Source: an uncultured Actinomycetes bacterium (GTDB lineage: Bacteria; Actinomycetota; Thermoleophilia; Gaiellales; Gaiellaceae). Taken from it: 64,000 bases of DNA. The translations under genes and the position numbers were made by a program. Under the pieces are notes generated by a model that made no database searches, was not told where the DNA came from, and was given only the letters and a program-made list of their open reading frames with translations. Where the stretch lies: the NCBI GenBank assembly GCA_963825255.1, contig CAWGSF010000007.1, positions 2,888 to 66,887 on the forward strand. The letters are read 5' to 3'. Shown piece by piece: positions 22,351-56,632 of this stretch. Numbering within the stretch: the first letter of the stretch is position 1; each line of letters opens with the position of its first letter.

Positions 22351-23727
22351 CTAGCCGGAGACGCCGGCGGGCTTGGGCAGCGGCTCGATCGCCTTCAGGG
22401 CCCGAGCGATCTCCTCCTCGGGGAGCGCGAAGTCCTCGAGCTGCCCGTGCAGGTACGCGTCGTAGGCGCCCAGGTCGAAGTGCCCGTGCCCCGAGAGGTT
22501 GAAGAGGATCGTGCGCTCGCGCCCCTCCTCGTCGGCCCTGGCCGCCGCCTCGACGACGCCGTGGATCACGTGCGCGGCCTCGGGCGCGGGGATGATCCCC
22601 TCGCTTCGAGCGAAGCGGACGGCCGAGCCGAAGACGTCGGTCTGCCCGTACGCCTCGGCGCGGACGAGGCCGTCGAGGACGAGCTGGGAGACGAGTGGCG
22701 CCATCCCGTGGTAGCGAAGCCCGCCCGCGTGGATCCCCGGCGGGACGAAGTCGTGGCCGAGCGTGTGCATGGGCACGAGCGGCGTCAGCTGCCCCGTGTC
22801 GCCGAAGTCGTACGCGAAGGGCCCGCGCGTCAGGGTGGGACAGGCAGCGGGCTCGCAGGCGAGGACGTCGATGTCGCGGCCGGCGATCTTCTCGCGGAGG
22901 AACGGGAAGGCGAGGCCGGCGAAGTTCGAGCCGCCGCCGACGCAGCCGGCGATGAGATCGGGGAAGGCGCCGGCCAGCTCCATCTGCGCGATCGCCTCCT
23001 GGCCGATCACGGTCTGGTGCATGAGGACGTGGTTGAGGACGCTCCCGAGGGAGTAGGCGGTGTCCTCGCGCTGGGCCGCGTCCTCGACGGCCTCTGAGAT
23101 GGCGATGCCGAGGCTGCCCGGAGAGTCCGCGTCGGCCTCGAGGACCGCGCGACCGGACTGGGTGTCCTCGGAGGGGCTGGCGACGACGCTCGCGCCCCAC
23201 GTCTCCATCATCGAGCGGCGGTACGGCTTCTGCTCGTAGGAGACCTTGACCATGTAGACCTTGCACTCGAGCCCGTAGAGCTGCGTGGCGAGCGCGAGCG
23301 CGCTTCCCCACTGGCCCGCTCCCGTCTCGGTCGAGATCCGTGTCCGCCCCGACTCCTTCACGTAGTAGGCCTGGGCGACGGCGGTGTTCGGCTTGTGGCT
23401 CCCGGCCGGGCTGACGCCCTCGTACTTGTAGAAGATGCGCGACCGCGTCCCCAGCTCGGCCTCGAGCCGGTGCGCGCGGTAGAGGGGCGTCGGGCGCCAG
23501 AGCCGGTAGACCCCCCGGATCGGCTCCGGGATCGGGATCTCGGCGTCCTGCGAGACCTCCTGGAGGATGAGGTCCATCGGGAAGAGGGGCGCGAGGTCGT
23601 CGGGGCCGACGGGCTCGCCGGTGCCGGGGTGCAGGACCGGCTGCGGCGGGTTCGGCATGTCGGCCTGGATGTTGTACCAGCGCTCGGGAATTGCGCTCTC
23701 GGGCAGGGTGATCTTCGTCTCGGTCAT
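22351..23727 (-). CDS. TrpB-like PLP-dependent enzyme (tryptophan synthase beta chain type 2)
   Basis: Intact 458-aa ORF. N-terminus ERWYNIQADMP, PLP lysine motif GSHKPNTA, and GGGSNFAG. Confidence 0.85.
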   Translation of the reverse strand: MTETKITLPESAIPERWYNIQADMPNPPQPVLHPGTGEPVGPDDLAPLFPMDLILQEVSQDAEIPIPEPIRGVYRLWRPTPLYRAHRLEAELGTRSRIFYKYEGVSPAGSHKPNTAVAQAYYVKESGRTRISTETGAGQWGSALALATQLYGLECKVYMVKVSYEQKPYRRSMMETWGASVVASPSEDTQSGRAVLEADADSPGSLGIAISEAVEDAAQREDTAYSLGSVLNHVLMHQTVIGQEAIAQMELAGAFPDLIAGCVGGGSNFAGLAFPFLREKIAGRDIDVLACEPAACPTLTRGPFAYDFGDTGQLTPLVPMHTLGHDFVPPGIHAGGLRYHGMAPLVSQLVLDGLVRAEAYGQTDVFGSAVRFARSEGIIPAPEAAHVIHGVVEAAARADEEGRERTILFNLSGHGHFDLGAYDAYLHGQLEDFALPEEEIARALKAIEPLPKPAGVSG

Positions 23728-23745
23728 GGTGGCGCGAGGATACTC

Positions 23746-24952
23746 CTATCGGAGACCCAGCGCCGCGACCGCGCTCTCGAGCCGGTCCATCGCCGCCTCG
23801 AGCTGTGCGTCGGCGAGATACGGCGCGGGCCCGAGGCGGAAATAGCGGCCGCGAGCGTCGATCAGGACGCCGTCGTCGGCCAGGCGTCGCGCCACCGCGC
23901 CCGCCTCCGGGCACTCGACGGCGAGGAACCCGCCGAAGCCGTCGAGCGGCGCCGAGCGGTCGCGCGCCATCAGCTCCTCCCGGACGCCGAGGCGGTCGAA
24001 GCGGTCGGCGAGCAGCCCGGTCTGGTGGAGGTAGGACGCACGCAGGAGCTCGGGGGTGAGGCCGCGCTCCGCGAAGAACCCGAAGACGCGGGCCGCCCGG
24101 TAGTGGCTCGTCGGGTCGTAGGTCGAGCCGGCGAAGCGCGCGCCTCCGGACGGATACGCCCACCGCCGAGTCGCCGCGCTCCGCCGCGAGCAGCTCGAAC
24201 TCGGCGAACCAGCCGGTGAGCACGGGCCGCATGTCCTCTGCCTGCGGGGGCAGGCGCAGGAAGCAGTTCCCCTCCCCGAGCTGGAGGTACTTGTAGCCGC
24301 CGCCGACGATCCACGCAGATTCCAGGCGCTCCTCCGCGACCCGGAAGGGGAGCGCTCCCAGCGCGTGGTAGACGTCGACGAGGAGCTCGGCGCCGGCAGC
24401 GGCGCATGCGTCCGCGAGCTCGCCGAGCCGCGGCACGATGCGGGCGGTCTCGAAGAGGACCGCGGAGACGAGGACGGCGCTCGTTCGCTCGTCGACCTCG
24501 GCCGCCATCCGCTCGGCCAGGGTCTCGGCCGGCGCGGCGGGCAGGCGAACGACCTCGAGCCCCGCCTCGCCCAGTCGCGCGAGCTGCCGGCGGAGCGTGT
24601 GGAACTCGCCGTCGGAGGTGACGAGTCTCGGCCGCCGGCGCAGGTCGAGCGCCGAGAGGAAGCGGATGACGAGCTCGTGCGTGTTCTGCGCGAGGGCGAT
24701 CTCTGCGTCGTGCTCGCCGAGGAGCAGCCTGAAGCCGTCCCGGACCGCGTCGGCCTTCGCGAAGGCGCGGTCCCACTTCTCGTCGACGCAGAGCGCCGCG
24801 TCCTCGAACGCCTCCAGCTGGCCCTCGCGCGCCACGTCGGGCCAGGCCTGGTGCGAGTGGCCGGTGAGGAGCAGCCGGTCGGCGACGCGGAAGGCGGAGT
24901 AGTCGGACGCCAGCGCGTTCGGCGTCCGCCGCAGGTCGTCGAGCTCGATCAC
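23746..24952 (-). CDS. kynU: Kynureninase (one frame change near 24160)
   Basis: GTG 24952 overlaps the kynA stop (GTGA). Motifs: LLTGHSHQAWP, VDVYHALGALP, GGGYKYLQLGEG. The C-terminus lies in ORF 23746..23970. Confidence 0.75.
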
Positions 24953-25741
24953 AGCTCGCTGCGGACCGACCAGAGGTCGGGGAAGGCGGGCTTGTTCAGG
25001 GTCGTGTGCAGGTAGGGCGCGCCGGGCGAGCCGCCCGTGCCGGGCTTGCTCCCGATCGTGCGCTCGACCATCTTCACGTGCCGGTAGCGCCACTCCTGGA
25101 AGCCCTCGTCGACGTCGACCATCCGCTCGCAGACCATGGCGGCCTCGCCGTCTTCTCGGTAGGCGGCCAGGACGGCCGCATGGACGCCGGCGGACTCCTC
25201 GACCGGCAGGGTCACGTCGCGCTCGAGCCGGTCGGCGGGGACGTCGTAGCCGCTCCGGGAGAGGTAGGCGAGGAAGGAGTCGTAGAGCGACGGCCGCTCG
25301 AGGGCGGCCGACGATCCGGCGGTAGTCGTCGCCCGCCTCGTCGTACGCGCGGAGGACCGAGCGCTCGCGCCGGCCGAGCACCGCCTCGAGCTCCCTGAAC
25401 TGGGCCGACTGGAAGCCGCTCGCCGACTCGAGCCGGTCGCGGAAGCTGAGGAACTGCGTCGGCTGGAGCGTCTCGATCACGTCGAGCTGCGCGACGACGA
25501 GCTTCAGGATCGTGAGGATCCGCTTGAAGGTGCCGAGCGCCTGCGAGCCGCGGCCCTCTTCGAGGAGGCGCTGGAGGTGGGCGAGCTCGTGGAGCAGCTC
25601 CTTGAACCACAGCTCGTACACCTGGTGGACGACGATGAAGAGCATCTCGTCGTGCTCGTCCGATCGCGGGCGCTGCGCGCCGAGGATCTCGTCGAGCGCG
25701 AGGTAGGAGGTGTAGGTGAGCGCCTTCGACTGCTCGCTCAT
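24949..25741 (-). CDS. kynA: Tryptophan 2,3-dioxygenase (one frame change near 25313)
   Basis: Motifs: LTYTSYLALDEILGAQ, FIVVHQVYELWFK, then (ORF 24949..25215) WRYRHVKMVERTIGSKPGTGGS. Confidence 0.85.
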
Positions 25742-25777
25742 GGGCCAATCCTTGGCCCGTGAGCGAGGGGAGGGTGT

Positions 25778-25849
25778 GTGAGGGAACCGGGAGGTTCCCT
25801 CACTGCATCAAAGAAGGGGGCACGTGGGGGAAACATGGTTTCCCCCACG
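25778..25849 (-). promoter_or_regulatory. Two tandem perfect hairpins between the acyl-CoA dehydrogenase stop and the kynA start (terminator/attenuator candidates)
   Basis: 25778..25803 GTGAGGGAACC-GGGA-GGTTCCCTCAC. 25823..25849 CGTGGGGGAAAC-ATG-GTTTCCCCCACG. On the transcribed strand the second hairpin is followed by a UGCCCCCUUCUUUGAU-like tract. Confidence 0.45.
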
Positions 25850-25874
25850 GGAGTGAGCCGAAGGCGAGCGACGG

Positions 25875-27012
25875 TCACGCGGTCTCCTTGAAGAGCTCGC
25901 GGGCGATGATCTCGCGCTGGACCTCGGAGGCGCCCTCGTAGATGCGCGGGGCCCGCACCTCCCGGTAGAGGTGCTCGAGCAGGTGCCCCTCCTCGAGCGC
26001 CCGCGCGCCGTGCACCTGGACGGCCACGTCCACCGCCCGCTGGGCGGTCTCCGTCGCGAACAGCTTGGCCATCGCCGAGGCCTGCCGGACGGGCCGCACG
26101 CCGGCGTCGTAGGCGGCCGCGGCGTCGTAGACGAGGAGGCGGGACGCCTGCACCCGTGTGGCCACCTCGGCGAGCTGGTGCCCGACCGCCTGGAGCTCCG
26201 AGAGCGGCTTGCCGAACGCCTCGCGCGCGGCCGCGTAGGCGACCGCCGCGTCGAGCGCGGCCTGCGCCATCCCGACCGCGAACGCGCCGACGCTGGGCCG
26301 GAAGAGGTCGAGCGTCTCCATCGCGACGCGGAAGCCCTTGTCCACCTCGCCGAGGACCTGCTCCTCCCCGACGAGCACGCCGTCGAGCTCGAGCCGCCCG
26401 ATCGGGTGCGGCGAGAGGAGTCGGAGCGCCTCGCCCGACACGCCCTCGCTCTCGCGCGGGACGGCGAAGGCGGTGACGCCCCGCGCGCCCGCGTCTTCCG
26501 TCGTCCGCGCGAAGACGGTGTACACGTCTGCCTCGGGCGCGTTCGAGATCCAGGTCTTCGCGCCGGTGAGCCGAAACGCGCCGCCGTCACGGTCGGCGCG
26601 AAGGGCGAGCGCGGCCGCGTCGGACCCGGCGTCGGGCTCGCTGAGCGCGAAGGCGGCCACGGCCTCGCCCGGCGGCCAGGCGTGGGACCCAGTGCCTCGC
26701 GGACCTCGGGACGGGCGTTGCGCAGGATCGGGTAGCCGCCGAGGCCCTGGAGCGCGAGCGCCGTCTCGGCCTCGGTGCACCCGTGGGCGAGCCCTTCGCG
26801 AAGCAGGCACAGCTCGACGGCCGACCCCTCGCCCTCGTGCGGGAGCACGTGCTCGAGCAGCCCCTCGTCGCCGAGCGCGCGGACGAGCGGCCGGTTGATC
26901 CGCCCGGGCTCACCCTCGCTCGGCCAGCGGCGCGAGCACGTCGTGCCCGAGCGCGCGGGCCCGTTCGAAGAGCGCCTCCTGGGCCTCCGAGAGTCGCGCT
27001 GTGCCCGCTCAT
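25875..27012 (-). CDS. Acyl-CoA dehydrogenase (at least 4 frame changes: ~26994, ~26905, ~26700, ~26670)
   Basis: ATGA overlap with the RidA stop. Pieces: LSEAQEALFERARALG, EPGRINRPLVRALGDEGLL, HWVPRLAAG, AAFALSEPDAGSD, C-terminal IYEGASEVQREIIAREL. Confidence 0.75.
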
Positions 27013-27396
27013 TCGGGAACGACCGCGACGCCCATCAGCTCGACGCGCGCCTCGGGGTCGAAGAGGGCGGAGGCTCCGATCAGGGCCATCGCCGGATAGC
27101 GGCGCCCGAAGTGCCGCCGCCAGACCTCGCCCAGCTCGCGCAGGGAGGCGCGGTACTCGTCCATGTCGGTCGAGAAGACGACGAGCGAGACGAGGTCGTC
27201 GGGCTCGCCGCCCGCGGCCCGCAGGGCCGTGACGAGCGCGCCCGCGGCGGCGTCGAACTGCTCGGCGAGCGTCTCGCCCGGCTCCGGTCTGTCCGCCCAG
27301 GTACACGGTGCGGCCCGGGGCGGCGACGACCGCGTGCGCGTAGCCGCTCGGCTCGGGGAGCTCCGGCGGGGCGACGATCCGGTGCCTGGCGCTCAT
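27009..27396 (-). CDS. RidA (YjgF/endoribonuclease L-PSP) family protein (one frame change near 27285)
   Basis: MSARHRIVAPPELPEPSGYAHAVVAAPGRTVYLGGQT, then the alternative frame to ...ELMGVAVVPE. ATGA overlaps at both ends. Confidence 0.65.
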
Positions 27397-28221
27397 CGCC
27401 CCGTCCAGCTGGGTCGGCGCCCTTCCGACCAGGCGGCGTAGAACTCCCGGTGGTCCTCGCTCTGCATCATCAGCGCCTGTCCCAGCGCCTCCAGCTCGAT
27501 CGCGCCGGCGAGGTCGAGGTCGAGCTCGCGCGTGAGCAGGACCTTCGTCGTCGAGTAGGCGAGCGCCGGGCCGTCGGCGAGCCGGCGGGCGAGCGCCTCC
27601 GTCGCGGCCGGCAGCTCGTCGTCGTCCACGACCTGCGTCGCCAGCCCGATCTCGAGCGCCCGCTCCGCGGTCACCTCGTCGCCGAGGATGAGGAGCTCCA
27701 GCGCCCGCCCCGCGCCGACGAGGCGTGGCAGGAGGTACGCGGAGCCCATGTCCGCGCCGGCGAGCCCGACCCGGGAGAAGAGGAACGCGAACGTCGCCGA
27801 GCGCGCGAGCAGACGGAAGTCGCTCGCGAGGGCGAGGACGGACCCGGCGCCGGCGGCGACGCCGTTGACCGCGGCGACGATCGGGAGCGGGCAGTCGCGC
27901 ATCGCCTTGACGACGGCCCCGGTCATCCGCGTGAACTCGAGCAGGTCGGCGGTGGGCTTGCCCTGGAGCTCGCCGATGATCTCCTCCACGTCGCCGCCCG
28001 AGCAGAAGCCGCGACCCTGTCCGGTGAGGACGAGCACGCGCGCGTCCCCGCGGTGGGGCAGCTCGGCGAGCAGGTCGCGCAGGTCGGCGTAGACGTCGAA
28101 GGTGAGCGCGTTCAGCTTCTCGGGCCGCGCCAGCGTGACGCGTCGCCACGCCGTCCTCGACGGCGAAGTCGAAGGTCTCCCACTGCTCGGTGAAGCCCGC
28201 CGACGCCCGGAACCTGGTCAC
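27393..28221 (-). CDS. Enoyl-CoA hydratase/isomerase family protein (one frame change near 28140)
   Basis: Crotonase motifs LTGQGRGFCSGGDV and IVAAVNGVAAGAGSVLA. GTG 28221 overlaps the SDR stop. Confidence 0.8.
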
Positions 28222-28950
28222 GCCTGGATCCCGCCTCCGTCGAGGACGAGCGCCTGGCCGTTGATCGCCGCCGCCTCCGGCGCGGCGAGGAAGGCGACGG
28301 CGAACGCGACCTCGTCGGGCTCGAGCAGGCGGCCGAGGGGCGACGACGCGATCAGCGCCGCCTCGGCCTCCTCCTCGCTGCGGTCCGTGGCGGACGACGA
28401 TGCGCGCGATCGACCTCTCGGTCATCTCCGTTCGCACGTAGGTCGGGCAGACGGCGTTGGCGGTCACGCCCGTGCCGGCCACCTCGGCGGCGACGGCGCG
28501 CATGAGGCCGACGGCGGCGTGCTTCGACGCCGTGTACGCGGCGGTGTAGCGGACGCCGACCAGGGCGGCGGTGGAGGCGACGGTGACGATGCGCCCCTCA
28601 TCGCGCTCGACCATGCCGCCGAGCACGGCGCGCGTGCAGAGGAAGGCGCCCGTCGCGTTGACGTCGAGGACGGCGCGCCAGTCGTCGAGCGTCGTGCGCC
28701 CGAGCGGGGCGCTCGCAGCGGCGCCGGCGTTGTTGACGAGGACGTCGACCCTGCCGAGCCGCTCGAAGAGCGCCGTCACCGCCTCCTCGTCGGTCACGTC
28801 GCAGACGTCGGTCTCGGCCGCCGCGGTCGCCTCCAGCGCCTCGCGGTCGCGCCCGACCGCGACGACCCGGTCGCCGGCGCCGGCGAAACGTTCGACGACC
28901 GCCCTCCCGATCCCCTTCCCGCCGCCCGTGACGACGACGACGCGCGTCAC
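28218..28950 (-). CDS. SDR family oxidoreductase (3-hydroxyacyl-CoA dehydrogenase-like; one frame change near 28395)
   Basis: Motifs: VVVTGGGKGIG, NNAG, YTASK. C-terminus LDGGGIQA is in the alternative frame. GTGA overlaps at both ends. Confidence 0.8.
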
Positions 28951-30518
28951 GCGGCGACCTCGACCTCGGCGCGGAGCGCGCGGCGGTCGATCTTGCCCGA
29001 CGGCGTCTTGGGCAGCTCCGCCACGAAGCGGACGTCGCGCGGGTACTTGTGCGGGGAGAGGTGCGTGCGCACGTGCTCCTGGAGCGCAGCGGCCAGGTCG
29101 TCCGAGGCGGCGACCCCGGCGCGGAGGACGACGTGCGCGCGCGTGAGCGTCAGCCCGCCCTCCTCGTAGCCGACGACGGCGCACTCGACGACGTCCGCGT
29201 GCGAGACGAGGCAGTGCTCGACCTCGGACGGCGCCACCCAGATGCCGCCCACCTTGATCAGCTCGTCGCTGCGCCCGCGGTACCAGAAGAAGCCGTCGCC
29301 GTCGCGGACGAAGAGGTCGCCCGTGTCCACGAGGTCGCCGTGGAACGTCTGCTTCGACTTCTCGTGCTCGTTCCAGTAGAGGAGCGCGGCGGTGTCGCCC
29401 TCGATCCAGAGCGTCCCGACCTCGCCGTCGGGCACCTCGCGGCCCTCGTCGTCGAGCACGCGGGCACGATAGCCGGGCACGACCTCGCCGACGCTGCCGG
29501 GCCGGACGCGCCCGGGGCGGCTCGAGATGTAGATGTGGTAGGCCTCGGAGGAGCCGATCCCGTCGAGCACCTCGACGCCGAACGCCTCCTGCCAGCGCTC
29601 GTAGAGCTCGCGCGGGAGCGCCTCGCCCGCGGAGGTGCAGAGCCGGAGGCAGGAGAGGTCCTGCCGGTGGGCGTCGGAGTGGGCGACCATCGCCGCCATC
29701 ATCGTCGGAACCTGGACGAGGATGCTCGGGCGATGCAGCGCGACGAGCTCGAAGATCCGCTCCGGCGTCGTCCGCTCGGGGAAGACGATCCCGGCCCCGC
29801 CGACGCCGAACGGGAAGAGCGCCGTCAGGTCGCGCGCGTAGCCGAAGAAGAGCTTCGGCACCGGGAGCACGACGTCGTCCTCCCTCAGATCGAGCACGCC
29901 TCGTGCGTACCACTCGAAGCTGAGCAGAGGGCTGTGCTGCGGGTGCACCGCCGCCTTGGGGAGGCCGGTGCTCCCGGTCGTGAACTTCCAGAGGGCGATG
30001 TCGTCGCGGGTGGTCGGGGCCGGCTCGAGCTCCTCCGGCGCCTGCGCGGCGAGCGCCTCGAAGGACACCTCGCCGGGACGGAGCTCGCCGGCGTCGCCGA
30101 CGACGAGCACGTGGCGGAGCCAGCTGCTCGAGGCCGCCGCCTCCCGGACGCGTTCCAGCGTGCTCGGGTCGGCGACCACGACGCCCGCGCGCGTGTAGTC
30201 GAGGTAGTAGGCGAAGTCCTTCGCCTGGAGGAACGTGTACGCCTCGGCCGTCACGGCGCCGATCTTCTGCGCCCCGTACCAGAGCGCCACGAGCTCGACG
30301 CCGTCGGCGAGGACGAGCAGGACGCGCTCCTCGGCGCGGACGCCCAGCTCGCGGAGGACGTGGCCGCTCCGGTTCACGAGCGCTGCGAGCTCCGCGTACG
30401 TGGTCGGGCCGTCGGGGCCGATCAGGGCGGTGCGGGGCCCGCGCCCCTCCTCGACGTTGCGGTCGACGAAGTGCGTCGCGAGGTTGAACCGGCGCGGGAC
30501 GTCGTCGTACGTCAGCAC
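28947..30518 (-). CDS. Benzoate/2-aminobenzoate-CoA ligase family AMP-binding enzyme
   Basis: Intact in-frame part of ORF 28947..32012. Motifs: FTTGSTGLPKAAV, SSEAYHIY, DTGDLF, YRGRSDELIKVGG, PKTPSGKIDRRAL. Context supports an anthranilate substrate (inference). Confidence 0.75.
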   Translation of the reverse strand: MLTYDDVPRRFNLATHFVDRNVEEGRGPRTALIGPDGPTTYAELAALVNRSGHVLRELGVRAEERVLLVLADGVELVALWYGAQKIGAVTAEAYTFLQAKDFAYYLDYTRAGVVVADPSTLERVREAAASSSWLRHVLVVGDAGELRPGEVSFEALAAQAPEELEPAPTTRDDIALWKFTTGSTGLPKAAVHPQHSPLLSFEWYARGVLDLREDDVVLPVPKLFFGYARDLTALFPFGVGGAGIVFPERTTPERIFELVALHRPSILVQVPTMMAAMVAHSDAHRQDLSCLRLCTSAGEALPRELYERWQEAFGVEVLDGIGSSEAYHIYISSRPGRVRPGSVGEVVPGYRARVLDDEGREVPDGEVGTLWIEGDTAALLYWNEHEKSKQTFHGDLVDTGDLFVRDGDGFFWYRGRSDELIKVGGIWVAPSEVEHCLVSHADVVECAVVGYEEGGLTLTRAHVVLRAGVAASDDLAAALQEHVRTHLSPHKYPRDVRFVAELPKTPSGKIDRRALRAEVEVAA

Positions 30519-31259
30519 GCGGCCACCTCGCGGACGAGCTCGACGACGAGGTCGACGAGCGTCTCGAACGTCCGCTCGCCCTCCTCGGCGGTCGCCTCGG
30601 CGGGGGCGCCGCAGTAGGCGCGATCCATTCCCATGGCAATGAAATCCGTCTGCCCGTCGGCGATGGCCGCGGGCATGTCGATCATCGTCGATTCCAGGGC
30701 CGCCATGCGCTCCCGCCGGACGAGCTCCGGCCGGTCGGCGAGAACGAGCGACGTCTCGTAGCGGCCGGCGTGGCACGAGCCCGAGCGGAACTCCTCGGTC
30801 AGCCGTTCCGCGTTGCGACGCCGGGTCAGGTCGAGGAGGCGGGCCGACGGCCCCAGCTCCGCGACCGCGTCCCGGAGCGTGCGCACCTGCTCGGGCTCGA
30901 AGTGGCTGTTCACGAGGACGATCCGCCCGAAGCCCTGCGCGGCGAGCGACCGGGCGACGTCGACGACGAGCGCGCGCAGGGTCTCCTCGCCGATCGAGAC
31001 GGCGCCGGGGAAGGCGGCGCCGTAGCGGGTGACGCCGTAGGGGAGGCGGCGGGAGGACGAGCGCGCGAACCTCGGGGTCGTCCGCGAGCCTCTCGGCGGC
31101 GCGCCTGCAGACGCCGAGCGAGATGAGGGTGTCCGTCTCGAGCGGCGCGTGCGGCCCGTGGGGCTCGACCGCGCCGAGCGGGAGGAGCAGGACCGTCGGC
31201 CTGGGATCCGCGAGCAGCTCCTCGAGGTCGGGGTACGCGAGCTCGGCGAATTCCGTCAC
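30512..31259 (-). CDS. Creatininase-family amidohydrolase (one frame change near 31055)
   Basis: Motifs: LLLPLGAVEPHGPHAPLETD, then NSHFEPEQ and CHAGRYETS (ORF 30512..30913). GTGCTGA overlap with the ligase start. Confidence 0.7.
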
Positions 31260-33347
31260 GACGCGACGGCGGCGCCCTCGGAGCGCTCGGGCGCCGGACG
31301 GAGCTCGCGCTCGAGGTCGGAGGGCGGGAGGTCGAGGATGCAGAGGTCGCCGCGGCCCGCGCCGACGATCGTGCTCGCGTCGTCGAGCGTCGTCAGGTGG
31401 CCGGCGACGAGCGTCGGCACGCCCGCCCCGGCCCTGACGCGGTCGCTGAGGCCGGTGAGGAAGCCCCGGCGGTACTCGGGCCGGTCGTGGGCGACGGTCT
31501 GCCCGGCGACCACGTGAATCAGGTCGCAGCCGTGCTCGACGAGCGCGCGGGCGGTCGCGACGCCCTCCTCCACGGACACGCCGCCGCGGGCCCAGTCGGT
31601 GACGGACAGGCGGACGGCGAGGACGCCGTCCCACGCCTCGCGCACCGCGTCGAGCACCTCGAGCGGGAAGCGGAGCCGGTCCTCGCCGTAGGCGTCGGCG
31701 CGGCGGTTCGTGAGCGGGGAGAGGAAGCTGGCGAGGAGGTACCCGTGCGCGTAGTCGAGCTCGAGGATGTCGACGCCGAGCTCGGCCGCGCGCCGCGCAC
31801 CTGCCACGAAGTCCGCGCGGACAGCCGCCATGCCGTCCTCGTCGAGCTCCCGTGGAACGGGGCTGAAGGGGCCGTAGGGGAGAGGGGACGCCGACACGAG
31901 CTCCCACCCCTCGCGCAGCGGGAGGTCGACGCCGAACGAGCGCGGGCGGCACGCTCCCCGTCTGCCCGCGTGCCCGAGCTGGAGCGCGACCGGGCGGAAC
32001 GTGGGCTCCCACTCGCGGATCGTCGGCGTCTCCGGCGTGATCCTGCCCTCCGGGGAAACCGCCACGAACCCGCTGAGGACGAGCCCCGCCCCGGCCGGCG
32101 AGGCATCGGGCCGCGCGACCACGCGGTTCTCGAGCGAGACAAGTAACAGACTGTTACTTGTTGTCGTCCGCCTCCCGAGCTCGAGGGGGGCGAACGCCGG
32201 CGGCGGGGCCACGGCCGTGTCGGCGCCCGTGAACCAGGCGTCGAGCACCCGCGTGAACGTCGGGTCGCGGACCGTGAGGCTCGCGTGGCTGATGCGGCCG
32301 CTGCGCGTCAGCAGGTTGAAGGCGAACTGGATCGGCTCGAGGTCGCGGTAGCCCGCGACGCGGGCGAAGTACGCGGCGCTCTCGCTTGCCGCCTGCTGCG
32401 TCCGCTCGACGACGGGCTGGCGCTCCATCTCGTAGTCGACGAGCGCCGCCTCGACGTTCCAGGCGCGGCGCTCGAGGGCGTCGCGGAGAGCGATCGCGTC
32501 CTCCATGGCGAGCTTCGTCCCCGAGCCGATCGAGAAGTGCGCCGTGTGGGCGGCGTCTCCCAGCACGACCGTGCGGCCGTGGTGCCAGACCCTGTTCACG
32601 ACCTTCGGGAAGTCGAGCCAGAGCGAGCGGTTCGAGAGGAGCTCGTGGCCCTCGAGGTCGCGCGCGAAGAGCCGCTCGCAGAAGGCGAGGCTCTCGTCCT
32701 CGGACAGCTCGTCGAGGCCCGGCGCGGCGCCACGTCGGCTCCGGGCACTCGACGATGAACGTGCTCGTGCGCTCGTCGAAGGGGTACGCGTGCACCTGGA
32801 AGAGCCCGTGCTCGGTGTCCTTGAAGATGAACGTGAAGGCGTCGAAGACGAGGTCGGTGCCGAACCAGACGTACTTGCAGCCCTCCGGCGCGACCGACGT
32901 GCCGAGCTCGCGCTCCAGCCCGCGCCGGACGACGCTGTTGACGCCGTCGGCGCCGACGACGAGGTCGGCGTCGTCCGGAGCGCCGTCGAGCTCGACGCCG
33001 AACGCCAGGTCGACGCCGAGGGAGAAGCAGCGGCGCTGGAGGATCTCCAGGAGCCGCTTGCGCGCGATGGCCGAGAAGGAATGGCCCTGCGACCGGAGGA
33101 CGCGCCCGCGGTAGCGGATGTCCACGCGGTCCCAGCGCGCGAACGTGTCGGTGATCGCCAGGTACGTCTCCTGGTCGGCGTCGCGGAGCGCGCCGAGGGT
33201 CTCCTCGCTGAAGACGACGCCCCAGCCGAAGGTCGCGTCGGGGGCGTTCCGCTCCGTCACCCGCACGTCGATGCCGGGGTCGACCTTCTTGAGCAGGATC
33301 GCCAGGTAGAGCCCGGCGGGGCCGGCGCCGACGATCGAGACCCTCAC
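31256..33347 (-). CDS. 2-aminobenzoyl-CoA monooxygenase/reductase-like bifunctional flavoprotein (one frame change near 32718; carries palindrome copy 1)
   Basis: N-terminal half: VSIVGAGPAGL, GADGVNSVV, LGDAAHTAHFSIGSGTKLAMEDA. C-terminal OYE-like half: LQLGHAGRRG, ELDYAHGYLLASFLSPLTNRR. Confidence 0.7.
32139..32161. repeat. Palindrome copy 1 (ACAAGTAACAGACTGTTACTTGT), inside a CDS
   Basis: Perfect dyad read directly. The stop of spurious ORF 32154..33347 (TAA at 32154..32156) anchors the coordinates. Confidence 0.95.
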
Positions 33348-34175
33348 CGGGACACCGCCTCCGCGAGCCGGTCGAGCTCGTCGACGTCTCCGACGGTCGG
33401 GAAGAGGACGAGCTCGTCGCAGCCGGCCTCCTCGTAGCCGCGCACGAAGTCCTTGATCGCCCGGGCGCTCGTGAGGTTGGCGGCGACGATGCGCTCGGCG
33501 AACGGCCCGGTGAACGCGTAGTAGTCACGGAGGTAGGCGTTGCCGCGCTCGACGTCCCCGAGCGCGAAGTAGCCCTGGCCCCAGAGGCGGGGGCGGCCGG
33601 GGCGCCCGAGGTCGCGCCAGGCCGCCTGGGCGCGCGCCGCGGCGCTTGCGAAGGCCCGCGGCGGGCCGCCGCCGTGCGCGTAGCCGTCGCCGTAGCGGGC
33701 CATGCGGGCGAAGGCGGGGCCGCTGCCGCCGCCGACGAGGAGCTCGATCCCCTCTCGCGGCGGGCCCACGCGATCCTCGTCGACGCCGCCGCGCAGGTAC
33801 GCGAGCTGCTCCGAGAACGTCCGCCCCCGGCCGCGGTGGTCGACGCCGGCGACCTCGTAGTCCTCGACCCTCGCGCCGATGGCGAGGCCGAGGGTCAGCC
33901 GCCCGCCCGAGAGGGCGTGCACCGAGGCGGCCTGCTTGGCGAGGAGGGCGGTCGCGCGCAGCGGGGCGATCGCGATCATCGTCGCCAGGCGCACGCGGCT
34001 GGTCGCGGCCGCCGCGGCGGCGAGCGTGGCGAAGGGCTCGAGGCTCGACGTAGGCGACGCGGTCGAGGACGGCCACGCTCGAGAACGGCCGGGCATCGGC
34101 GCGCCGCGCCCACTCGAGCACCTGCGCGCCGTCCGTCTCCGGCGTCGTGTTCGGGAGCCCGACGCCGACGTTCAA
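33344..34175 (-). CDS. LLM-class (luciferase-like) F420/flavin-dependent oxidoreductase (one frame change near 34050)
   Basis: N-terminus MNVGVGLPNTTPETDGAQVLEWARRAD (ORF 33525..34175). The rest lies in ORF 33344..34096 (GGRLTLGLAIG, ELLVGGG). GTGA overlap with the next gene. Confidence 0.65.
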
Positions 34176-34214
34176 CCGTGGGTCCGTTTCCGTCGCGTGC
34201 AGGAAGGTTTACAC

Positions 34215-34235
34215 TTGACCGAGGTGATGTGTCAA
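34215..34235. promoter_or_regulatory. Dyad TTGAC-N11-GTCAA in the divergent paaI / catabolic-operon intergenic region
   Basis: Located in the 83-nt gap between divergent starts 34175 and 34259, which is relatively AT-rich. Confidence 0.3.
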
Positions 34236-34258
34236 CAAAACCCGGACCGGGAGCGCGC

Positions 34259-34673
34259 ATGACGGACTCGGGCGAGGCGCGCGACCCGCTCCTCGAGCCC
34301 TCGGCGTTCGACCGCCACTACGGGCTCGAGGTGGTCGAGTGCAGCGACGAGCTCGTGCGCGGGCGCGTCGAGGTGGGGGAGGAGCTGAAGCAGCCGCTGG
34401 GGCTCGTCCACGGCGGCGTCCACGCGGCGATCGCCGAGGGGCTCGCTTCGCTCGGGACGAACCACGGCGTCGCCGCCGAAGGCAAGGTCGGCCTCGGCAT
34501 GTCCAACGAGTCGTCGTTCCTGCGGCCCGTCGGCGGGCGGGACGATCCACGCGACTGCGCGCCGGCGCCATCGCGGCCGGACGACGTGGGTCTGGGACGT
34601 GGAGCTCGCCGACGACGAGGGCCGGCTCTGCGCTCTCAGCCGGGTGACCGTGGCGGTCCGCCCGGGCCCGTGA
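34259..34673 (+). CDS. paaI: PaaI-family hotdog thioesterase (one frame change near 34535)
   Basis: FDRHYGLEVVE...QPLGLVHGGVHAAIAE...SFLRPV, then the alternative frame gives TIHATARRRHRGRTTWVWDVELADDEGRLCALSRVTVAV. Confidence 0.7.
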
Positions 34674-35506
34674 GCGAGGAGGCCCCGCCGCTCTTCGAGC
34701 AGCGGCCACAGAGCCTCGTCGTCACGCTGCTCGGCGCGTACGTCTACCCGGACGACCGGCTGGTGTGGTCGGGCGGGCTCGTGCGGCTCCTGGGCGAGCT
34801 CGGCTTCTCCGCCGGTGCCGCCAGGGTCGCCCTGGCGCGGCTGACGCGCCGCGACCTCCTCGCGCGCGTCCGCACCGGCCGGCTCGTGCACTACCGGCCG
34901 ACAGCGCGGACGACCGCGCTGCTGGCCGAGGGCGAGCGCCGGATCTTCTCGCTCGGCCGCGACGCCCGTCCCGCCGGCGAGTGGACGATCCTCTCGCATG
35001 CCATTCCCGACGAGCGGCGGCTCGAGCGCGGCCGGCTCGCCCGGCGCCTGCGCTTCCTCGGCTTCGGCTCGCTCCAGGACGGCGTCTGGATCTCGCCGCA
35101 CGACCGCGCGGAGGAGGTGGCCTCCCTCCTCGAGGAGCTGCGGCTCGTCGGCCATGCCGCCGTCGTCCTCGGGCGGCCGGCGGGCCTCACCGACCTCGAG
35201 ACCCTCGTCGCCCGTGCCTGGGACGTGGAGGGGCTGGCGAAGCGCTACCGCGCGTTCGAGCTCGCCTTCGGCCGGCACACGGCACGGAACGGCGTCGCCG
35301 ATCGGGAGGCCTTCCTCGTCCGCACCCGGCTCGTGCACGCCTTCCGGCAGTTCCCGTCCCTCGACCCGGGGTTGCCGGACGAGCTCGTCCCGACCGGCGG
35401 GCATCGCGCCCGGGCGGTCGCCCTCTTCCACGATCTCTATGCCGCGCTGGCAGAGCCGGCCCGGCGCCACTTCGTCGGCGCGACGGCCCCGCCCGTCCGC
35501 GGCTAG
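34670..35506 (+). CDS. paaX: PaaX-family transcriptional regulator
   Basis: GTG 34670 overlaps the paaI stop. Motifs: QSLVVTLLGAY...LVRLLGELGFSAGAARVALARL, GFGSLQDGVWISPH. Confidence 0.75.
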   Translation: MSEEAPPLFEQRPQSLVVTLLGAYVYPDDRLVWSGGLVRLLGELGFSAGAARVALARLTRRDLLARVRTGRLVHYRPTARTTALLAEGERRIFSLGRDARPAGEWTILSHAIPDERRLERGRLARRLRFLGFGSLQDGVWISPHDRAEEVASLLEELRLVGHAAVVLGRPAGLTDLETLVARAWDVEGLAKRYRAFELAFGRHTARNGVADREAFLVRTRLVHAFRQFPSLDPGLPDELVPTGGHRARAVALFHDLYAALAEPARRHFVGATAPPVRG

Positions 35507-41265: not shown

Positions 41266-41288
41266 GCAAGTAACAGTCTGTTACTTGC
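41266..41288. repeat. Palindrome copy 2 (GCAAGTAACAGTCTGTTACTTGC)
   Basis: Perfect dyad 12 nt upstream of the VOC start (41253) and about 120 nt upstream of the MauE-like start (41410). Confidence 0.95.
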
Positions 41289-53834: not shown

Positions 53835-53857
53835 GCAAGTAACAGACTGTTACTTGC
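53835..53857. repeat. Palindrome copy 3 (GCAAGTAACAGACTGTTACTTGC; dyad extends to 53834..53858)
   Basis: Lies in the 35-nt gap between convergent stops 53831 and 53867. Coordinates are anchored by the spurious ORF stop TAA at 53850..53852. Confidence 0.95.
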
Positions 53858-55153: not shown

Positions 55154-55178
55154 CATGTCAGGGGTCAGACCCCGGCCG
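55154..55178. repeat. 25-nt hairpin repeat, copy B (CATGTCAGGGGTCAGACCCCGGCCG)
   Basis: 24/25 identical to copy A and 98 nt away. Lies 25 nt downstream of the CBS stop. Confidence 0.85.
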
Positions 55179-55202
55179 TGGCCGAAGGACGCGACCGCGG
55201 CG

Positions 55203-56607
55203 CTACGCAGCGCCGTCCGGGCGGCCGCGGGCGAGGTACTCGAGGAGATCGGCGCGGGTGAGCACGCCGACGGGCCGTCCGTCGCGGGCGACGACGACGG
55301 CCGGGTTGCCCGCGGAGAGGTCGGCGAACACCGTGTCCACCGACTCGTCGATCTCGACCGCCGGGAGCGGGGGCTCCATCGCCGAGGCCACCTCCTCCTC
55401 GAGCGCCTCCCGGTTCCGGAAGACCCGCTCGAGGAGGCTCCGCTCGCGGATCGACCCGACCACGTCGGCCAGCGAGTCGGCCCCGTCTCGCCGCACGACG
55501 GGGATCTGCGAGATCGCGTAGCGGTGCATGAGGTCGATCGCCTCGCCGACCTTCTGGTTCGACTCGACCGTGACGAGCTCGGGAACATCGGGCGCGTCGT
55601 GCCGCTTGAACGCGAGGACCTCGTCGATCCTGGGCGGGGGCGCCTCCCGCTCGAGCACGCCGTGCTCCATCAGCCAGTTGTCGTCGTAGACCTTGGAGAG
55701 GTAGCCGCGCCCCGAGTCGGGGATCAGGGTCACGAGCGTCGCCTCCGGCCCGAACCGCCGGGCGACCTGGAGCAACGCCCACACGGCCGTGCCGCCAGAG
55801 CCTCCCACGAGCATGCCCTCCTCGCGGGCGAGCTTCCGCGCCGTCCGGAAGGAATCCACGTCCGACACCGTGACGTACTCGTCCACGAGCGACGGGTCGA
55901 ACGTCGCTCGGCCAGAAGTCCTCGCCGATCCCCTCCACGAGGTAGGGGTGGATGTCGTCGGGGTTCGAGAAGATCGAGCCTTCCGGATCCGCGGCGACGA
56001 CGAGGAGGTCCGGCTTCCGCTCCTTGAGGTACCGCGAGATGCCGGAGATCGTCCCGCCTGTGCCGACGGAGAGGACGATCGCGTCGAGCTCGCCGCCGGT
56101 CTGCTCCCAGATCTCGGGCCCGGTCGTCTCGTAGTGCGCCGCCGGGTTGGCCGGGTTCGAGTACTGGTCGGGCTTGAACGCGCCCGGGATCTCCTCGGCG
56201 AGCCGGTCGGACACGGAGTAGTAGCTCTCGGGCGACTCCGGCGCGACCGCGGTCGGGCAGATGACGACCTCGGCGCCGTACCCGCGCAGGAGCGCCCGCT
56301 TCTCCTCGGCGATCTTGTCCGGCATGACGAAGACGCAGCGGTAGCCCTTGATCGCGGCCACGATCGCGAGGCCGACGCCCGTGTTGCCGCTCGTCGGCTC
56401 GACGATCGTGCCGCCCGGGCGGAGCTTTCCCTCCCGCTCCGCCGCCTCGATCATCCGGAGGCCGATCCGGTCCTTGACGCTCCCGCCGGGATTCAGGTAC
56501 TCGAGCTTGGCGAGGAGCGTCGGCGCGACCTCGCGGCCGACCCGCTGCAGGCGCACCAGCGGCGTCCGGCCGACGAGGTCGAGGACGGTCGGATAGTCGC
56601 GGGGCAT
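55203..56607 (-). CDS. Cystathionine beta-synthase (PLP domain plus tandem CBS domains; frame change near 55905)
   Basis: Motifs: NPGGSVKDR, SGNTG, GTGGT. C-terminal CBS-pair region in ORF 55203..55886. Confidence 0.85.
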
Positions 56608-56632
56608 CGCCGGTAGCGTATTCGCGGCGCTT

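Follow-up and report, generated by a model that had tools for sequence, protein, structure and literature searches.

A candidate operon for tryptophan catabolism through anthraniloyl-CoA in a Gaiellaceae-like actinobacterium, with a predicted luciferase-like reductase partner

Introduction

Can a cluster in which most genes appear interrupted still degrade tryptophan by way of anthranilate and CoA thioesters, and which enzyme would reduce the ring if the usual reductase domain has decayed? These questions are raised by a locus of a Gaiellaceae-like soil actinobacterium with a genome of 2.9 Mb. A first-pass annotation of the window (the whole 64,000-nt stretch of DNA that was analysed) had described a translationally coupled block leading from tryptophan to 2-aminobenzoyl-CoA; its gene families, gene order and junctions stood, whereas the frameshifts and the degenerate reductase domain had been overlooked. 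We consider it likely, judging from the sequences and their context, that the locus is a functional PaaX-controlled tryptophan catabolic operon, that its frameshifts are assembly errors and that a luciferase-like (LLM-class) protein acts as reductase partner.

Results

Gene content and junctions

Pfam and NCBIfam profile searches of the window recovered all 11 minus-strand gene families in the order that had been predicted, and a sequence check found all nine junction motifs (GTGA, ATGA or GTGCTGA) at the predicted coordinates. The features are as follows.

34670..35506, plus strand: PaaX-family repressor, 278 aa, intact; GTG start, overlapping with the stop of the thioesterase gene
34259..34673, plus strand: PaaI/4HBT-type hotdog thioesterase, 137 aa; +1 insertion near 34533
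34176..34258, no strand: divergent control region, AT-rich, conserved
33344..34175, minus strand: LLM-class oxidoreductase, about 275 aa, TTG start; +1 insertion near 34043
31256..33347, minus strand: flavoprotein with an FAD monooxygenase domain and an apparently degenerate old-yellow-enzyme (OYE)-like domain, 687 aa in congener G012; +1 insertion near 32718
30512..31259, minus strand: creatininase-family metal amidohydrolase, 248 aa; +1 insertion near 31045
28947..30518, minus strand: aryl-CoA ligase of the benzoate-CoA ligase family, 523 aa, intact
28218..28950, minus strand: short-chain dehydrogenase (SDR), 243 aa; +1 insertion near 28392
27393..28221, minus strand: crotonase-family enoyl-CoA hydratase/hydrolase, 275 aa; +1 insertion near 28141
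27009..27396, minus strand: RidA/YjgF family protein, 127 aa; +1 insertion near 27275
25875..27012, minus strand: acyl-CoA dehydrogenase (ACAD), 377 aa; +1 insertions near 26670, 26692, 26917 and 26997
25735..25877, no strand: dispersed repeat of ~145 bp between the ACAD gene and kynA
24949..25741, minus strand: kynA, tryptophan 2,3-dioxygenase, 263 aa; +1 insertion near 25310
23746..24952, minus strand: kynU-like gene, distant kynureninase homologue, 401 aa when intact; +1 insertion near 24157
22351..23727, minus strand: TrpB-like (type 2) PLP enzyme, intact, with 18 nt between it and the upstream kynU

The junction overlaps are genuine, as the same overlaps join intact genes in congeners. 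In G012 (locus L012, intact) a 4-nt overlap is present at every junction from the LLM gene to kynA, ACAD/kynA included, except for a 7-nt overlap between the creatininase and ligase genes, and kynU opens immediately past the kynA stop. The divergent pair of thioesterase and PaaX genes with their common GTGA at 34670-34673 was likewise confirmed; only the thioesterase start had to be moved, from 34232 to 34259.

Kynurenine-pathway genes

The kynA product matched Pfam Trp_dioxygenase with 137.9 and 70.2 bits, split over two frames, and its intact orthologue scored 284.8 bits with TIGR03036, below the cut-off of 390.7. An NCBIfam search with the kynU-like protein gave zero matches, the kynureninase equivalog model included, and KYNU_C reached 22.7 bits, again below the cut-off. 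A profile of 17 kynU-like orthologues matched Pseudomonas kynureninase (1qz9) over the full length (E 1.9e-17). The PLP lysine motif GGYKY shows no variation; by these comparisons the protein is related to kynureninases only distantly. The TrpB-like protein scored 713 bits with NF009057 (cut-off 366). Its gene was found in all 18 congeners searched, with or without the cluster, and lies near the cluster in Actinophytocola too, in a different arrangement; it belongs to the core of the genus and is probably not, strictly speaking, a member of the catabolic unit.

The intact orthologue of the creatininase-family enzyme matched Pfam Creatininase over its full length (193 bits), and all 23 orthologues compared share E32, H34, D43, H119 and E168. 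Because these orthologues were seen inside such clusters only, they are candidate arylformamidases, and the enzyme of this operon is a putative one. In one genome, the creatininase gene accompanies the CoA genes while kynA-kynU lie at another place, so formamidase is one among several possible roles; two cyclase-family (KynB-type) genes elsewhere in the present genome also count against the creatininase route.

Ligase and ring-processing enzymes

The ligase exceeded the cut-off of TIGR02262 (512 against 375 bits) and matched benzoate-CoA ligase 2v7b (407 bits) and anthranilate-CoA ligase 4wv3 (385 bits) about equally; identity to the assayed anthranilate-CoA ligase of the Arthrobacter pAL1 cluster is 36%. 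From its sequence alone, anthranilate is not separable from benzoate or salicylate as substrate. The SDR matched adh_short with 173.5 bits in one frame, with its C-terminal part in another, and otherwise gave generic FabG/BadH-like matches. For the hydratase, ECH_1 gave 150.6 bits, and its intact orthologue scored 376 bits with NF006107 (cut-off 330). RidA matched Pfam Ribonuc_L-PSP and is 42% identical to RidA of the pAL1 anthranilate cluster. The N, M and C domains of Pfam Acyl-CoA_dh were found in ACAD across two frames; in NCBIfam it comes closest to cyclohexane-1-carbonyl-CoA and glutaryl-CoA dehydrogenases, with every score under its cut-off. Family searches detected no ring-cleaving dioxygenase within the operon, in keeping with a non-oxygenolytic route.

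The flavoprotein and its LLM neighbour

The best NCBIfam model of the flavoprotein, NF006101, is named 'bifunctional salicylyl-CoA 5-hydroxylase/oxidoreductase' and gave 791.5 bits, below its cut-off of 1078. Compared with the ACMR-like protein of pAL1 (47% identity) there are deletions at the OYE N-terminus, and the window copy carries an in-frame palindrome insertion of ~30 nt at 32135-32180. In the tree, the flavoprotein was placed in a sister clade to the canonical, characterised ACMR/SdgC family. It lacks the SPMxxY motif, and the His-His-Tyr triad is gone in its clade; the OYE half has lost both the FMN loop and the triad. The FMN phosphate-binding end is still conserved, so the OYE-like domain may keep a cofactor.

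The LLM protein matched Bac_luciferase with 92 bits. Its best NCBIfam matches are all F420 LLM subfamilies and its nearest solved structures are putative F420-dependent oxidoreductases. It is probably F420-dependent, and since it scores below the cut-offs of all these subfamilies, F420 as its cofactor stays a prediction. The F420 biosynthesis genes cofD and cofH/fbiC are present in this genome with scores above cut-offs.

Presence of this neighbour follows the state of the OYE half. Of the 43 flavoproteins with the SPMxxY loop, not one is encoded beside an LLM gene, and of the 33 that lack it, 31 have an LLM gene directly upstream. Where an LLM neighbour is absent, the His-His-Tyr triad is retained at 44 of 46 loci, versus 6 of 32 where there is one. 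In the tree, the LLM-associated flavoproteins form one clade with 100% support, which also contains two loci (L093 and L074) where an LLM neighbour was undetected. LLM link and motif loss trace to this single clade and so count as one evolutionary event, not as many independent ones. In a sample centred on the LLM protein, the flavoprotein gene adjoins 26 of ~30 orthologues versus 0 of 11 more distant homologues. A model of the LLM-flavoprotein complex reached an ipSAE of 0.80, a mark attained by 58 of 80 solved complexes and by 2 of 110 mismatched pairs, compared to 0.00 for the best control; partner pLDDT was at least 91, contact agreement was at least 81% and the predicted interface lies on the degenerate OYE-like domain.

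Distribution of the gene set and the substrate

The cluster was found in 5 of 18 congeners searched. A set of ligase, flavoprotein, creatininase, SDR, hydratase, RidA, ACAD, kynA and kynU-like genes recurs, with its genes rearranged, in Actinomycetota, Gemmatimonadota and one Eisenbacteria MAG; the kynU-like gene is present in 19 of 80 flavoprotein-centred loci, in three gene orders and three phyla, including those of four cultured Actinophytocola species. Such linkage of kyn and CoA genes is strong context evidence for a CoA branch fed by tryptophan-derived anthranilate, and the recurrence of the set suggests that anthranilate made from tryptophan, not salicylate, is the substrate. The initial reading from tryptophan through anthranilate to a CoA ester gains support from this linkage and from the abm-like and pAL1-like gene content.

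Alternatively, the CoA branch could degrade salicylate or another ortho-substituted benzoate by a route of the Streptomyces sdg type, with the kyn genes as chance neighbours or a side reaction. The name of the flavoprotein's top model and the position of the ligase within the general benzoate-CoA ligase family speak for this possibility. However, the pAL1 enzyme bears that model name as well, and its host has been shown to form anthraniloyl-CoA. In addition, RidA (imine/enamine deaminase family) is a constant member of the set although salicylate has no nitrogen to remove, the operon has neither a gentisate dioxygenase nor a maleylpyruvate enzyme, and kynA and kynU are tied to the set across the three gene orders and phyla. 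We regard salicylate degradation as unlikely.

Frameshifts, repeat and control region

By count, 11 of the 14 genes are frameshifted by single extra bases (10 interrupted and 3 uninterrupted genes are named here). The interrupted genes carry one extra base each, or four in the case of ACAD; in the window copy only ligase, PaaX and TrpB-like genes are uninterrupted. All interrupted genes have start-to-stop spans of 3n+1. Single-base insertions of this kind also split purH and a CBS-type PLP enzyme gene outside the operon and occur window-wide, and five congeneric loci have intact genes. Because +1 insertions also split purH and congeners keep intact genes with the same overlaps, we therefore read the frameshifts as assembly errors rather than decay.

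The first-pass annotation had noted two hairpins upstream of kynA. The structures exist, but they belong to the ~145-bp dispersed repeat, an insertion in some strains only. About six copies with 85-93% identity are present in this genome and many across the genus. In G012, G006, G002 and G003, four of the five cluster-bearing congeners, the ACAD-kynA site lacks the repeat, and the stop codon of the ACAD gene overlaps with the start of kynA. Scoring of the repeat region gave no terminator-like site.

A truly decaying operon, with real mutations and a pathway dead in this strain, would account for the number of interrupted genes, for the accessory nature of the cluster (5 of 18 congeners) and for the insertion of repeat and palindrome. 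It does not account for the fact that every event is a +1 insertion, with zero deletions and zero premature-stop substitutions, for a GC3 of 0.9-1.0 that persists on either side of each shift, or for the similar density of hits in purH and other genes beyond the operon; moreover, related long-contig MAGs have scattered shifts at other places, whereas two short-read-like assemblies have none. Decay is in our view very unlikely, and we retain assembly error as the reading of the frameshifts.

The control region contains TTGACA and an inverted repeat TTGAC-N11-GTCAA and is nearly identical in three congeners despite diverging flanks; it is a candidate promoter with PaaX operator. The repressor exceeds the cut-offs of Pfam PaaX, PaaX_M and PaaX_C and shares 30% identity with a regulator of PaaX type in the anthranilate cluster of pAL1. 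The thioesterase gave TIGR00369 and MenI/EntH-like matches and has an intact orthologue in G002.

Discussion

The abm clusters of Azoarcus evansii for aerobic 2-aminobenzoate degradation, reportedly described by Schuhle et al. in 2001, are said to encode a ligase, ACMR, three beta-oxidation enzymes and a YjgF/RidA-like protein, to lack a ring-cleaving dioxygenase and to proceed through CoA thioesters only. The present cluster shares the ligase, the FAD-monooxygenase/OYE fusion, three beta-oxidation-type enzymes and the YjgF/RidA-like protein; it has no ring-cleaving dioxygenase either, and its intermediates would likewise be CoA thioesters. It differs by kynA and a kynU-like gene in the same predicted transcription unit, by additional creatininase-family and LLM genes, by a PaaX-type instead of a MarR-type regulator, by the missing ABC binding protein and by a sister-clade flavoprotein whose reductase domain is degenerate and whose length is less by ~80 residues.

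As in the bacterial kynA-kynB-kynU anthranilate branch, a PLP enzyme of the kynureninase fold comes after a heme tryptophan 2,3-dioxygenase. In contrast to that pathway, the cluster has no cyclase-type KynB, its kynU-like protein has diverged too far to match the kynureninase model of NCBIfam, and anthranilate would go to a CoA ligase, not to an anthranilate dioxygenase. The salicylyl-CoA 5-hydroxylase SdgC of Streptomyces sp. WA46 resembles the present flavoprotein in its two-domain architecture and falls under the same NCBIfam model (NF006101), for which the present flavoprotein remains below cut-off (791 versus 1078 bits); the cluster lacks gentisate-pathway genes and has nitrogen-handling and kyn genes. 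A biosynthetic role, in which anthraniloyl-CoA would lead to a product derived from anthranilate or kynurenine, much as in the priming of aurachins or quinolones, is highly improbable: the ligase is near the aurachin anthranilate-CoA ligase AuaEII (4wv3, 385 bits) and kyn genes provide precursors in some actinomycete antibiotic clusters, but PKS, NRPS, condensing enzyme and exporter are all missing in or beside the operon, the partners (beta-oxidation-type enzymes, RidA, PaaX repressor) are typical of aryl-CoA catabolism and the genome has only 2.9 Mb.

Catabolism has an actinobacterial precedent in Arthrobacter sp. Rue61a, for which anthranilate-CoA ligases were assayed and anthraniloyl-CoA and C7H8O4-CoA were detected in anthranilate-grown cells (PMC3534580). 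The anthranilate CoA-thioester genes of this strain are located on plasmid pAL1 and on the chromosome. In its pAL1 cluster an assayed anthranilate-CoA ligase adjoins the ACMR-like flavoprotein (PMC3534580; NC_009453), and PaaX-type regulators, RidA and a hotdog-fold protein are present as in our locus, with 47% identity between flavoproteins and 42% between RidA proteins. The pAL1 flavoprotein, however, is full-length (797 aa) with intact SPM..Y loop and His-His-Tyr triad and without LLM; next to it are encoded an FAH-family protein, a cupin and a thioesterase rather than SDR, hydratase and ACAD, anthranilate arises there from quinaldine and not via kyn genes, and the ligases share only 36% identity.

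For the tryptophan catabolic operon we propose the following route, all steps of which are deduced from protein families and gene context. KynA would convert tryptophan to N-formylkynurenine, and an arylformamidase, for which the creatininase-family enzyme is the candidate, would take the formyl group off N-formylkynurenine or N-formylanthranilate. The kynureninase-like enzyme would yield anthranilate and alanine, and the ligase would form anthraniloyl-CoA. The FAD half of the flavoprotein presumably hydroxylates the ring at C5, and the dienone intermediate would be reduced to 2-amino-5-oxocyclohex-1-ene-1-carbonyl-CoA. This reduction is probably not performed by the fused OYE domain, in which both the FMN loop and the catalytic residues are decayed, but by the LLM protein encoded just upstream, likely with F420H2 and docked, as predicted, on the OYE-like domain. 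RidA may aid the hydrolytic loss of the amino group; SDR, crotonase-family enzyme and ACAD could then open and shorten the ring in an O2-free, BadH/BadI/BadJ-like manner. The hotdog thioesterase may release CoA from stalled thioesters, and an aryl-CoA would free PaaX from the divergent promoter.

New in this system are the sister-clade flavoprotein with its degenerate OYE half, the LLM neighbour, the predicted docking of the two and the F420 genes of the host. The flavoenzyme seems to have been shorn of its built-in reductase and paired with a separate LLM protein.

Operon content and integrity of the sequence

Pfam and NCBIfam searches recovered all eleven minus-strand families at window 22351-35506 in the order read by the first-pass annotation: luciferase-like oxidoreductase (LLM), flavoprotein, creatininase, ligase, short-chain dehydrogenase (SDR), crotonase, RidA, acyl-CoA dehydrogenase (ACAD), kynA, kynU-like and TrpB-like. 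The divergent pair of a hotdog thioesterase and a PaaX regulator was present as well, and every start/stop junction motif that it had listed was found at its position. The observation is thus real with respect to families, order and junctions. It had not noted the frameshifts described below, and its 'two hairpins', located in a 133-nt gap, are a dispersed repeat of ~145 bp that is not general to the cluster. About six copies of this repeat occur in the genome and many in the genus; at the ACAD/kynA site it is inserted only in the present genome and in G001 among the congeneric loci compared, and a consensus scan scored no terminator in it. In G012, a congener with an intact cluster, the junctions from the LLM gene to kynA are all 4-nt start/stop overlaps (7 nt between creatininase and ligase), ACAD/kynA included, and kynU starts immediately after the kynA stop codon. 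Because the overlaps are also found intact in G012, the coupling is genuine and predates this strain.

The genome is a 2.92-Mb MAG of 13 contigs with ~72% G+C, the window lying on contig 7; its named relatives are Gaiellaceae MAGs and the 'Microflora Danica' long-contig MAGs. Reading frames were analysed by GC3 frame plots and split Pfam matches, followed by tblastn and blastn against five congeneric loci. Compared with the congeners, the window copies of the LLM, flavoprotein, creatininase, SDR, crotonase, RidA, kynA, kynU-like and thioesterase genes carry one extra base each and that of ACAD carries four; all events are +1 insertions, each affected gene has a start-to-stop span of 3n+1, and GC3 is 0.9-1.0 on either side of every shift. 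Like events occur at similar density outside the operon in the syntenic part of the window. Over the whole window, +1 insertions relative to two congeners amount to about one per kilobase (e.g. at window 38751, 39290, 43641, 43993, 52239, 53222, 55905, 56607 and 57327), and outside the operon they split two further genes:

55165-56607, PALP-CBS enzyme, split by a +1 insertion
56493-58169, purH, split by a +1 insertion

The more fragmented assemblies G003 and G001 have no shifts, and other long-contig MAGs have different ones. Real pseudogenisation of the operon was rejected in view of the exclusive +1 type, the preserved GC3, the same events outside the operon and the intact genes of the congeners. 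From the sequence comparison, the frameshifts look like assembly errors of a systematic insertion type. Long-read MAGs of this kind appear to contain about one +1 error per kilobase that mimics pseudogenes, and 'pseudogene' or 'fusion' calls in this genome need comparison with relatives. Since the window copies appear to carry such errors, the functional analysis was performed on intact orthologues, mainly those of G012 (locus L012), with kynU taken from locus L014 and the thioesterase from L013.

The operon and the thioesterase-PaaX pair are separated by a short intergenic stretch:

34176-34258, divergent region, 83 nt, AT-rich, almost invariant among congeners

A TTGACA motif sits here inside the inverted repeat TTGAC-N11-GTCAA, and the region is plausible as a candidate promoter/operator. 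The consensus scan did not score it as a promoter. The PaaX protein matches the N-terminal, middle and C-terminal Pfam domains, all above cut-offs. At the other end of the operon, the TrpB-like (type 2) gene (window 22351-23727) lies 18 nt past kynU. It adjoins the cluster in Gaiellales; in Actinophytocola it is convergent after ACAD in another arrangement (L026 17517-18851; L027 17477-18811). The enzyme may supply the pathway with indole by way of tryptophan, yet its gene is a core gene present in 18 of 18 congeners searched, and the cluster itself was found in only five of these (the other 13 include the unpublished G009).

Note that the window also contains a 23-nt AT-rich perfect palindrome, CAAGTAACAG(A/T)CTGTTACTTG, at 32139-32161, 41266-41288 and 53835-53857. 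The genome has 38 copies of it at 72% G+C, compared with none of a reversed control. One copy lies within an in-frame insertion of ~30 nt in the flavoprotein hinge that is common only to G003. Another is located ~200 nt from one of the genome's two cyclase-family (KynB-type) genes, on contig 1 (326534-329556), which may be coincidence.

Substrate and pathway context

The ligase gave a full-length match to the benzoate-CoA ligase family model TIGR02262 (512 bits, cut-off 375) and is about equally near to the benzoate-CoA ligase 2v7b and the anthranilate-CoA ligase AuaEII (4wv3). The top model of the flavoprotein, NF006101, carries a salicylyl-CoA name, and the intact orthologue scores 791.5 bits against its cut-off of 1078. 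Sequence by itself is insufficient to define the substrate; in our view, gene context settles it as anthranilate. Among 80 loci found with the flavoprotein as query, the set of ligase, creatininase, SDR, RidA, crotonase, ACAD, flavoprotein, kynA and kynU-like genes recurs in three gene orders and three phyla: the Gaiellales type of the window, an Actinophytocola/Jiangellaceae type with PaaX-kynA-kynU divergent from the remainder, and a Gemmatimonadales/Eisenbacteria type in which the ligase is divergent, the creatininase comes first and kynA-kynU follow immediately on the flavoprotein. Membership that is kept while the order is shuffled across three phyla is a classical mark of genes acting in a single pathway. 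RidA is always part of the set and a ring-cleaving dioxygenase is absent, which fits an amino-substituted substrate and non-oxygenolytic ring opening. The earlier proposal of a route from tryptophan via anthranilate to 2-aminobenzoyl-CoA gains support from this linkage of kyn genes and CoA branch. Note that the two modules can separate, since in G031, an actinomycetotal MAG, the CoA-branch genes including the creatininase gene and a kynA-kynU pair are found on different contigs (L114 8725-10667; L032 9189-16347).

By Pfam and NCBIfam, the operon combines ligase, monooxygenase, beta-oxidation-type enzymes and a RidA-like gene without a ring dioxygenase. This content matches the Azoarcus-type aerobic 2-aminobenzoyl-CoA cluster, as reportedly described in 2001 for the 2-aminobenzoate genes of Azoarcus evansii. 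Actinobacteria offer an independent precedent: two ligases of Arthrobacter sp. Rue61a have been shown to be anthranilate-CoA ligases, and anthranilate-grown cells contained anthraniloyl-CoA, a hydroxyanthraniloyl-CoA-like ester and a C7H8O4-CoA ester (PMC3534580). The cluster on the Arthrobacter plasmid pAL1 resembles the operon in having PaaX-type regulators (two), a RidA and a hotdog protein. Its ligase gene and its gene for a 2-aminobenzoyl-CoA monooxygenase/reductase (ACMR)-like enzyme (L023 7481-16240) have FAH-family, cupin and acyl-CoA thioesterase genes as neighbours instead of beta-oxidation genes, which hints at a different downstream route, e.g. via free 5-hydroxyanthranilate. The pathway idea itself is not new, because genome reconstructions in Cupriavidus already joined kyn and abm genes conceptually (PMC8879955).

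The kynurenine branch and the creatininase-family protein

KynA, a heme tryptophan 2,3-dioxygenase by family, has a strong Pfam PF03301 match and matches TIGR03036 over its full length with 284.8 bits, below the equivalog cut-off of 390.7. No NCBIfam model, the kynureninase type TIGR01814 included, matched the kynU-like protein. A profile of 17 orthologues found Pseudomonas kynureninase (1qz9) as best PDB match, full length with E 1.9e-17, followed by human kynureninases and only then by cysteine desulfurases, and the PLP lysine motif GGYKY is invariant; we label the protein kynureninase-like. A kynB-type formamidase, whether cyclase or alpha/beta-hydrolase, is absent from the operon, and the genome has two cyclase-type (PF04199) genes on other contigs. 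The creatininase-family gene is the sole hydrolase candidate in the cluster.

This protein matches PF02633 with 193 bits over positions 2-238 of 238 and a PDB creatininase with E 2.5e-28, and the binuclear-metal ligand residues E32, H34, D43, H119 and E168 are invariant in its orthologues. With the models for creatininase proper, MftE and IolN it stays under the respective cut-offs. All 19 loci with a kynU-like gene also hold the creatininase-family gene. Two further matches with E <= 1e-40 were detected in 400 evenly drawn Actinomycetota genomes (G340 and the unpublished G355); the look at gene context covered G340, where the orthologue sits in a complete cluster. In a search of 5.8 billion proteins, the best 120 matches listed were all near-identical Gaiellaceae variants and gave no new contexts.

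Whether the enzyme is an arylformamidase is finely balanced, with doubt slightly in the lead. An N-formylanthranilate deformylase would fit the constant adjacency to the ligase, as its product is anthranilate; a formylkynurenine formamidase would fit that adjacency equally. ArfB, a formylaminopyrimidine deformylase, is a member of the creatininase family. A role on an alicyclic intermediate is also conceivable by analogy with IolN, a ring-opening diketone hydrolase of the same family. The expectation that the creatininase gene follows kynA-kynU when the modules separate is contradicted in G031, where it stays beside ligase and flavoprotein and no hydrolase lies beside the separate kynA-kynU pair; this decides neither for nor against the formamidase idea. 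Clusters without the creatininase gene offered no informative case of a cyclase-type KynB in its place, the cyclase genes in five such genomes (two of them unpublished) being located off the loci. The searchable literature contained nothing relevant on a creatininase-type kynurenine formamidase.

A degenerate reductase domain and its predicted LLM partner

In the intact orthologue, the N-terminal FAD hydroxylase of the flavoprotein matches FAD_binding_3, and residues 2-403 cover positions 1-417 of NF006101; among PDB entries the protein resembles VioD. The C-terminal old-yellow-enzyme (OYE)-like domain lacks the SPMxxY loop and the His-His-Tyr catalytic residues. Aligned to the pAL1 enzyme, with which it shares 47% identity, the G012 protein is shorter by ~34 residues after OYE strand beta-1, the SPMxxY FMN loop among them, by another ~12 residues and by about 55 at the C-terminus. 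With the FMN loop and the next helix deleted, the segment comprises 60 aa compared with 94 aa in canonical forms, and the OYE match begins only at about position 50 of solved OYEs. In the triad motif LELDYAHGY the first His is replaced by Asp. The barrel has kept a conserved phosphate-binding end.

The loss coincides with the LLM gene. Among 76 flavoproteins, the loop is present in 43, none of which has an LLM neighbour, and absent in 33, of which 31 have the LLM gene directly upstream (29 without L047 and L048 from unpublished genomes); of the two exceptions, one lies right at the end of a contig. Of the 46 loci that lack an LLM neighbour, 44 keep the equivalents of YqjM His164/His167/Tyr169; of the 32 that have such a neighbour, only 6 do. 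A tree computed with FastTree places the LLM-associated flavoproteins in one clade (34 rows, 100% support), together with L093 and L074, for which no LLM neighbour was detected. Only Actinomycetota and Chloroflexota/Thermomicrobiota are represented in it, and its sister clade contains the pAL1, Rhodocyclaceae (Azoarcus relatives) and Gemmatimonadota forms. Since the clade is single, LLM link and reductase loss represent one evolutionary event. Sampling from the LLM side (400 Actinomycetota genomes) gave orthologue-strength matches in about one tenth of the genomes. For the LLM orthologues of at least 52% identity examined in published genomes, the flavoprotein gene lies directly downstream in 24 cases and directly upstream in two; none of 11 more distant homologues adjoins one.

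Modelling of the complex, with alignments supplied for both proteins, gave an ipSAE of 0.80 (0.79-0.83 in three runs) versus 0.00 for the best of three controls; 58 of 80 solved complexes attain the ipSAE mark applied, as do 2 of 110 mismatched pairs. The partners had a pLDDT of at least 91, and contacts agreed in at least 81%. The predicted interface involves residues 458-467, 604-620 and 640-643 of the OYE-like domain and residues 118-131, 151-161 and 180-193 of LLM. Because we know of no solved LLM-OYE complex, the model is unlikely to be recall. LLM scored 115-121 bits with TIGR03619 (cut-off 166.9), and its nearest families and structures, all below cut-offs, are F420-dependent or putatively so; cofD and cofH/fbiC are present in the genome above cut-offs. 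In our reading, the fused reductase would have decayed to a docking scaffold, and LLM, probably with F420H2, would reduce the hydroxylated dienone. Alternatively, LLM may act at a later step. Searchable literature on F420 or kynureninase together with anthraniloyl-CoA monooxygenase yielded nothing relevant.

Downstream, RidA would convert 2-amino-5-oxocyclohex-1-enecarbonyl-CoA into the 2,5-dioxo ester by hydrolysis of its enamine/imine. The crotonase, which in its intact orthologue exceeds the cut-off of NF006107, would perform a BadI-like hydrolytic ring opening. SDR and ACAD, the latter with cyclohexanecarbonyl-CoA and glutaryl-CoA dehydrogenases as nearest relatives, would account for adjustment of the 5-oxo group and beta-oxidation. 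The joint reading, in which ACMR is split into two proteins in Actinomycetota/Chloroflexota, a dedicated, docked LLM subunit, probably F420H2-dependent, hydrogenates the ring on a dead OYE scaffold and, in the tryptophan-linked form of the cluster, the creatininase fold provides a third, non-orthologous type of arylformamidase, is put forward tentatively, as possible rather than probable.

Significance

To our knowledge, the aerobic route via 2-aminobenzoyl-CoA has been recognised since the early 1990s, and the steps beyond its first two enzymes were never worked out. The operon places the whole route from tryptophan in one coupled unit, so the pathway becomes testable; cultured carriers of the same unit are Actinophytocola oryzae DSM 45499, A. 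algeriensis CECT 8960, A. glycyrrhizae CGMCC 4.7433 and A. gossypii S1-96. The pathway type is already known. New, judging by the searchable literature, is the variant that has kyn genes within the operon, a creatininase member and a degenerate reductase paired with LLM. If true, decay of the fused reductase alongside a dedicated LLM partner would clearly exemplify a separate subunit taking the place of a domain, and the hand-over to LLM would add dearomatisation of an aromatic ring to F420/LLM chemistry. With LLM homologues of orthologue-level score in about one in ten sampled Actinomycetota genomes, most of those checked adjoining a flavoprotein gene, the route may be common in soil. Close relatives of the Gaiellaceae creatininase gene are numerous in metagenome collections, and the route may count in the turnover of tryptophan and anthranilate in soil.
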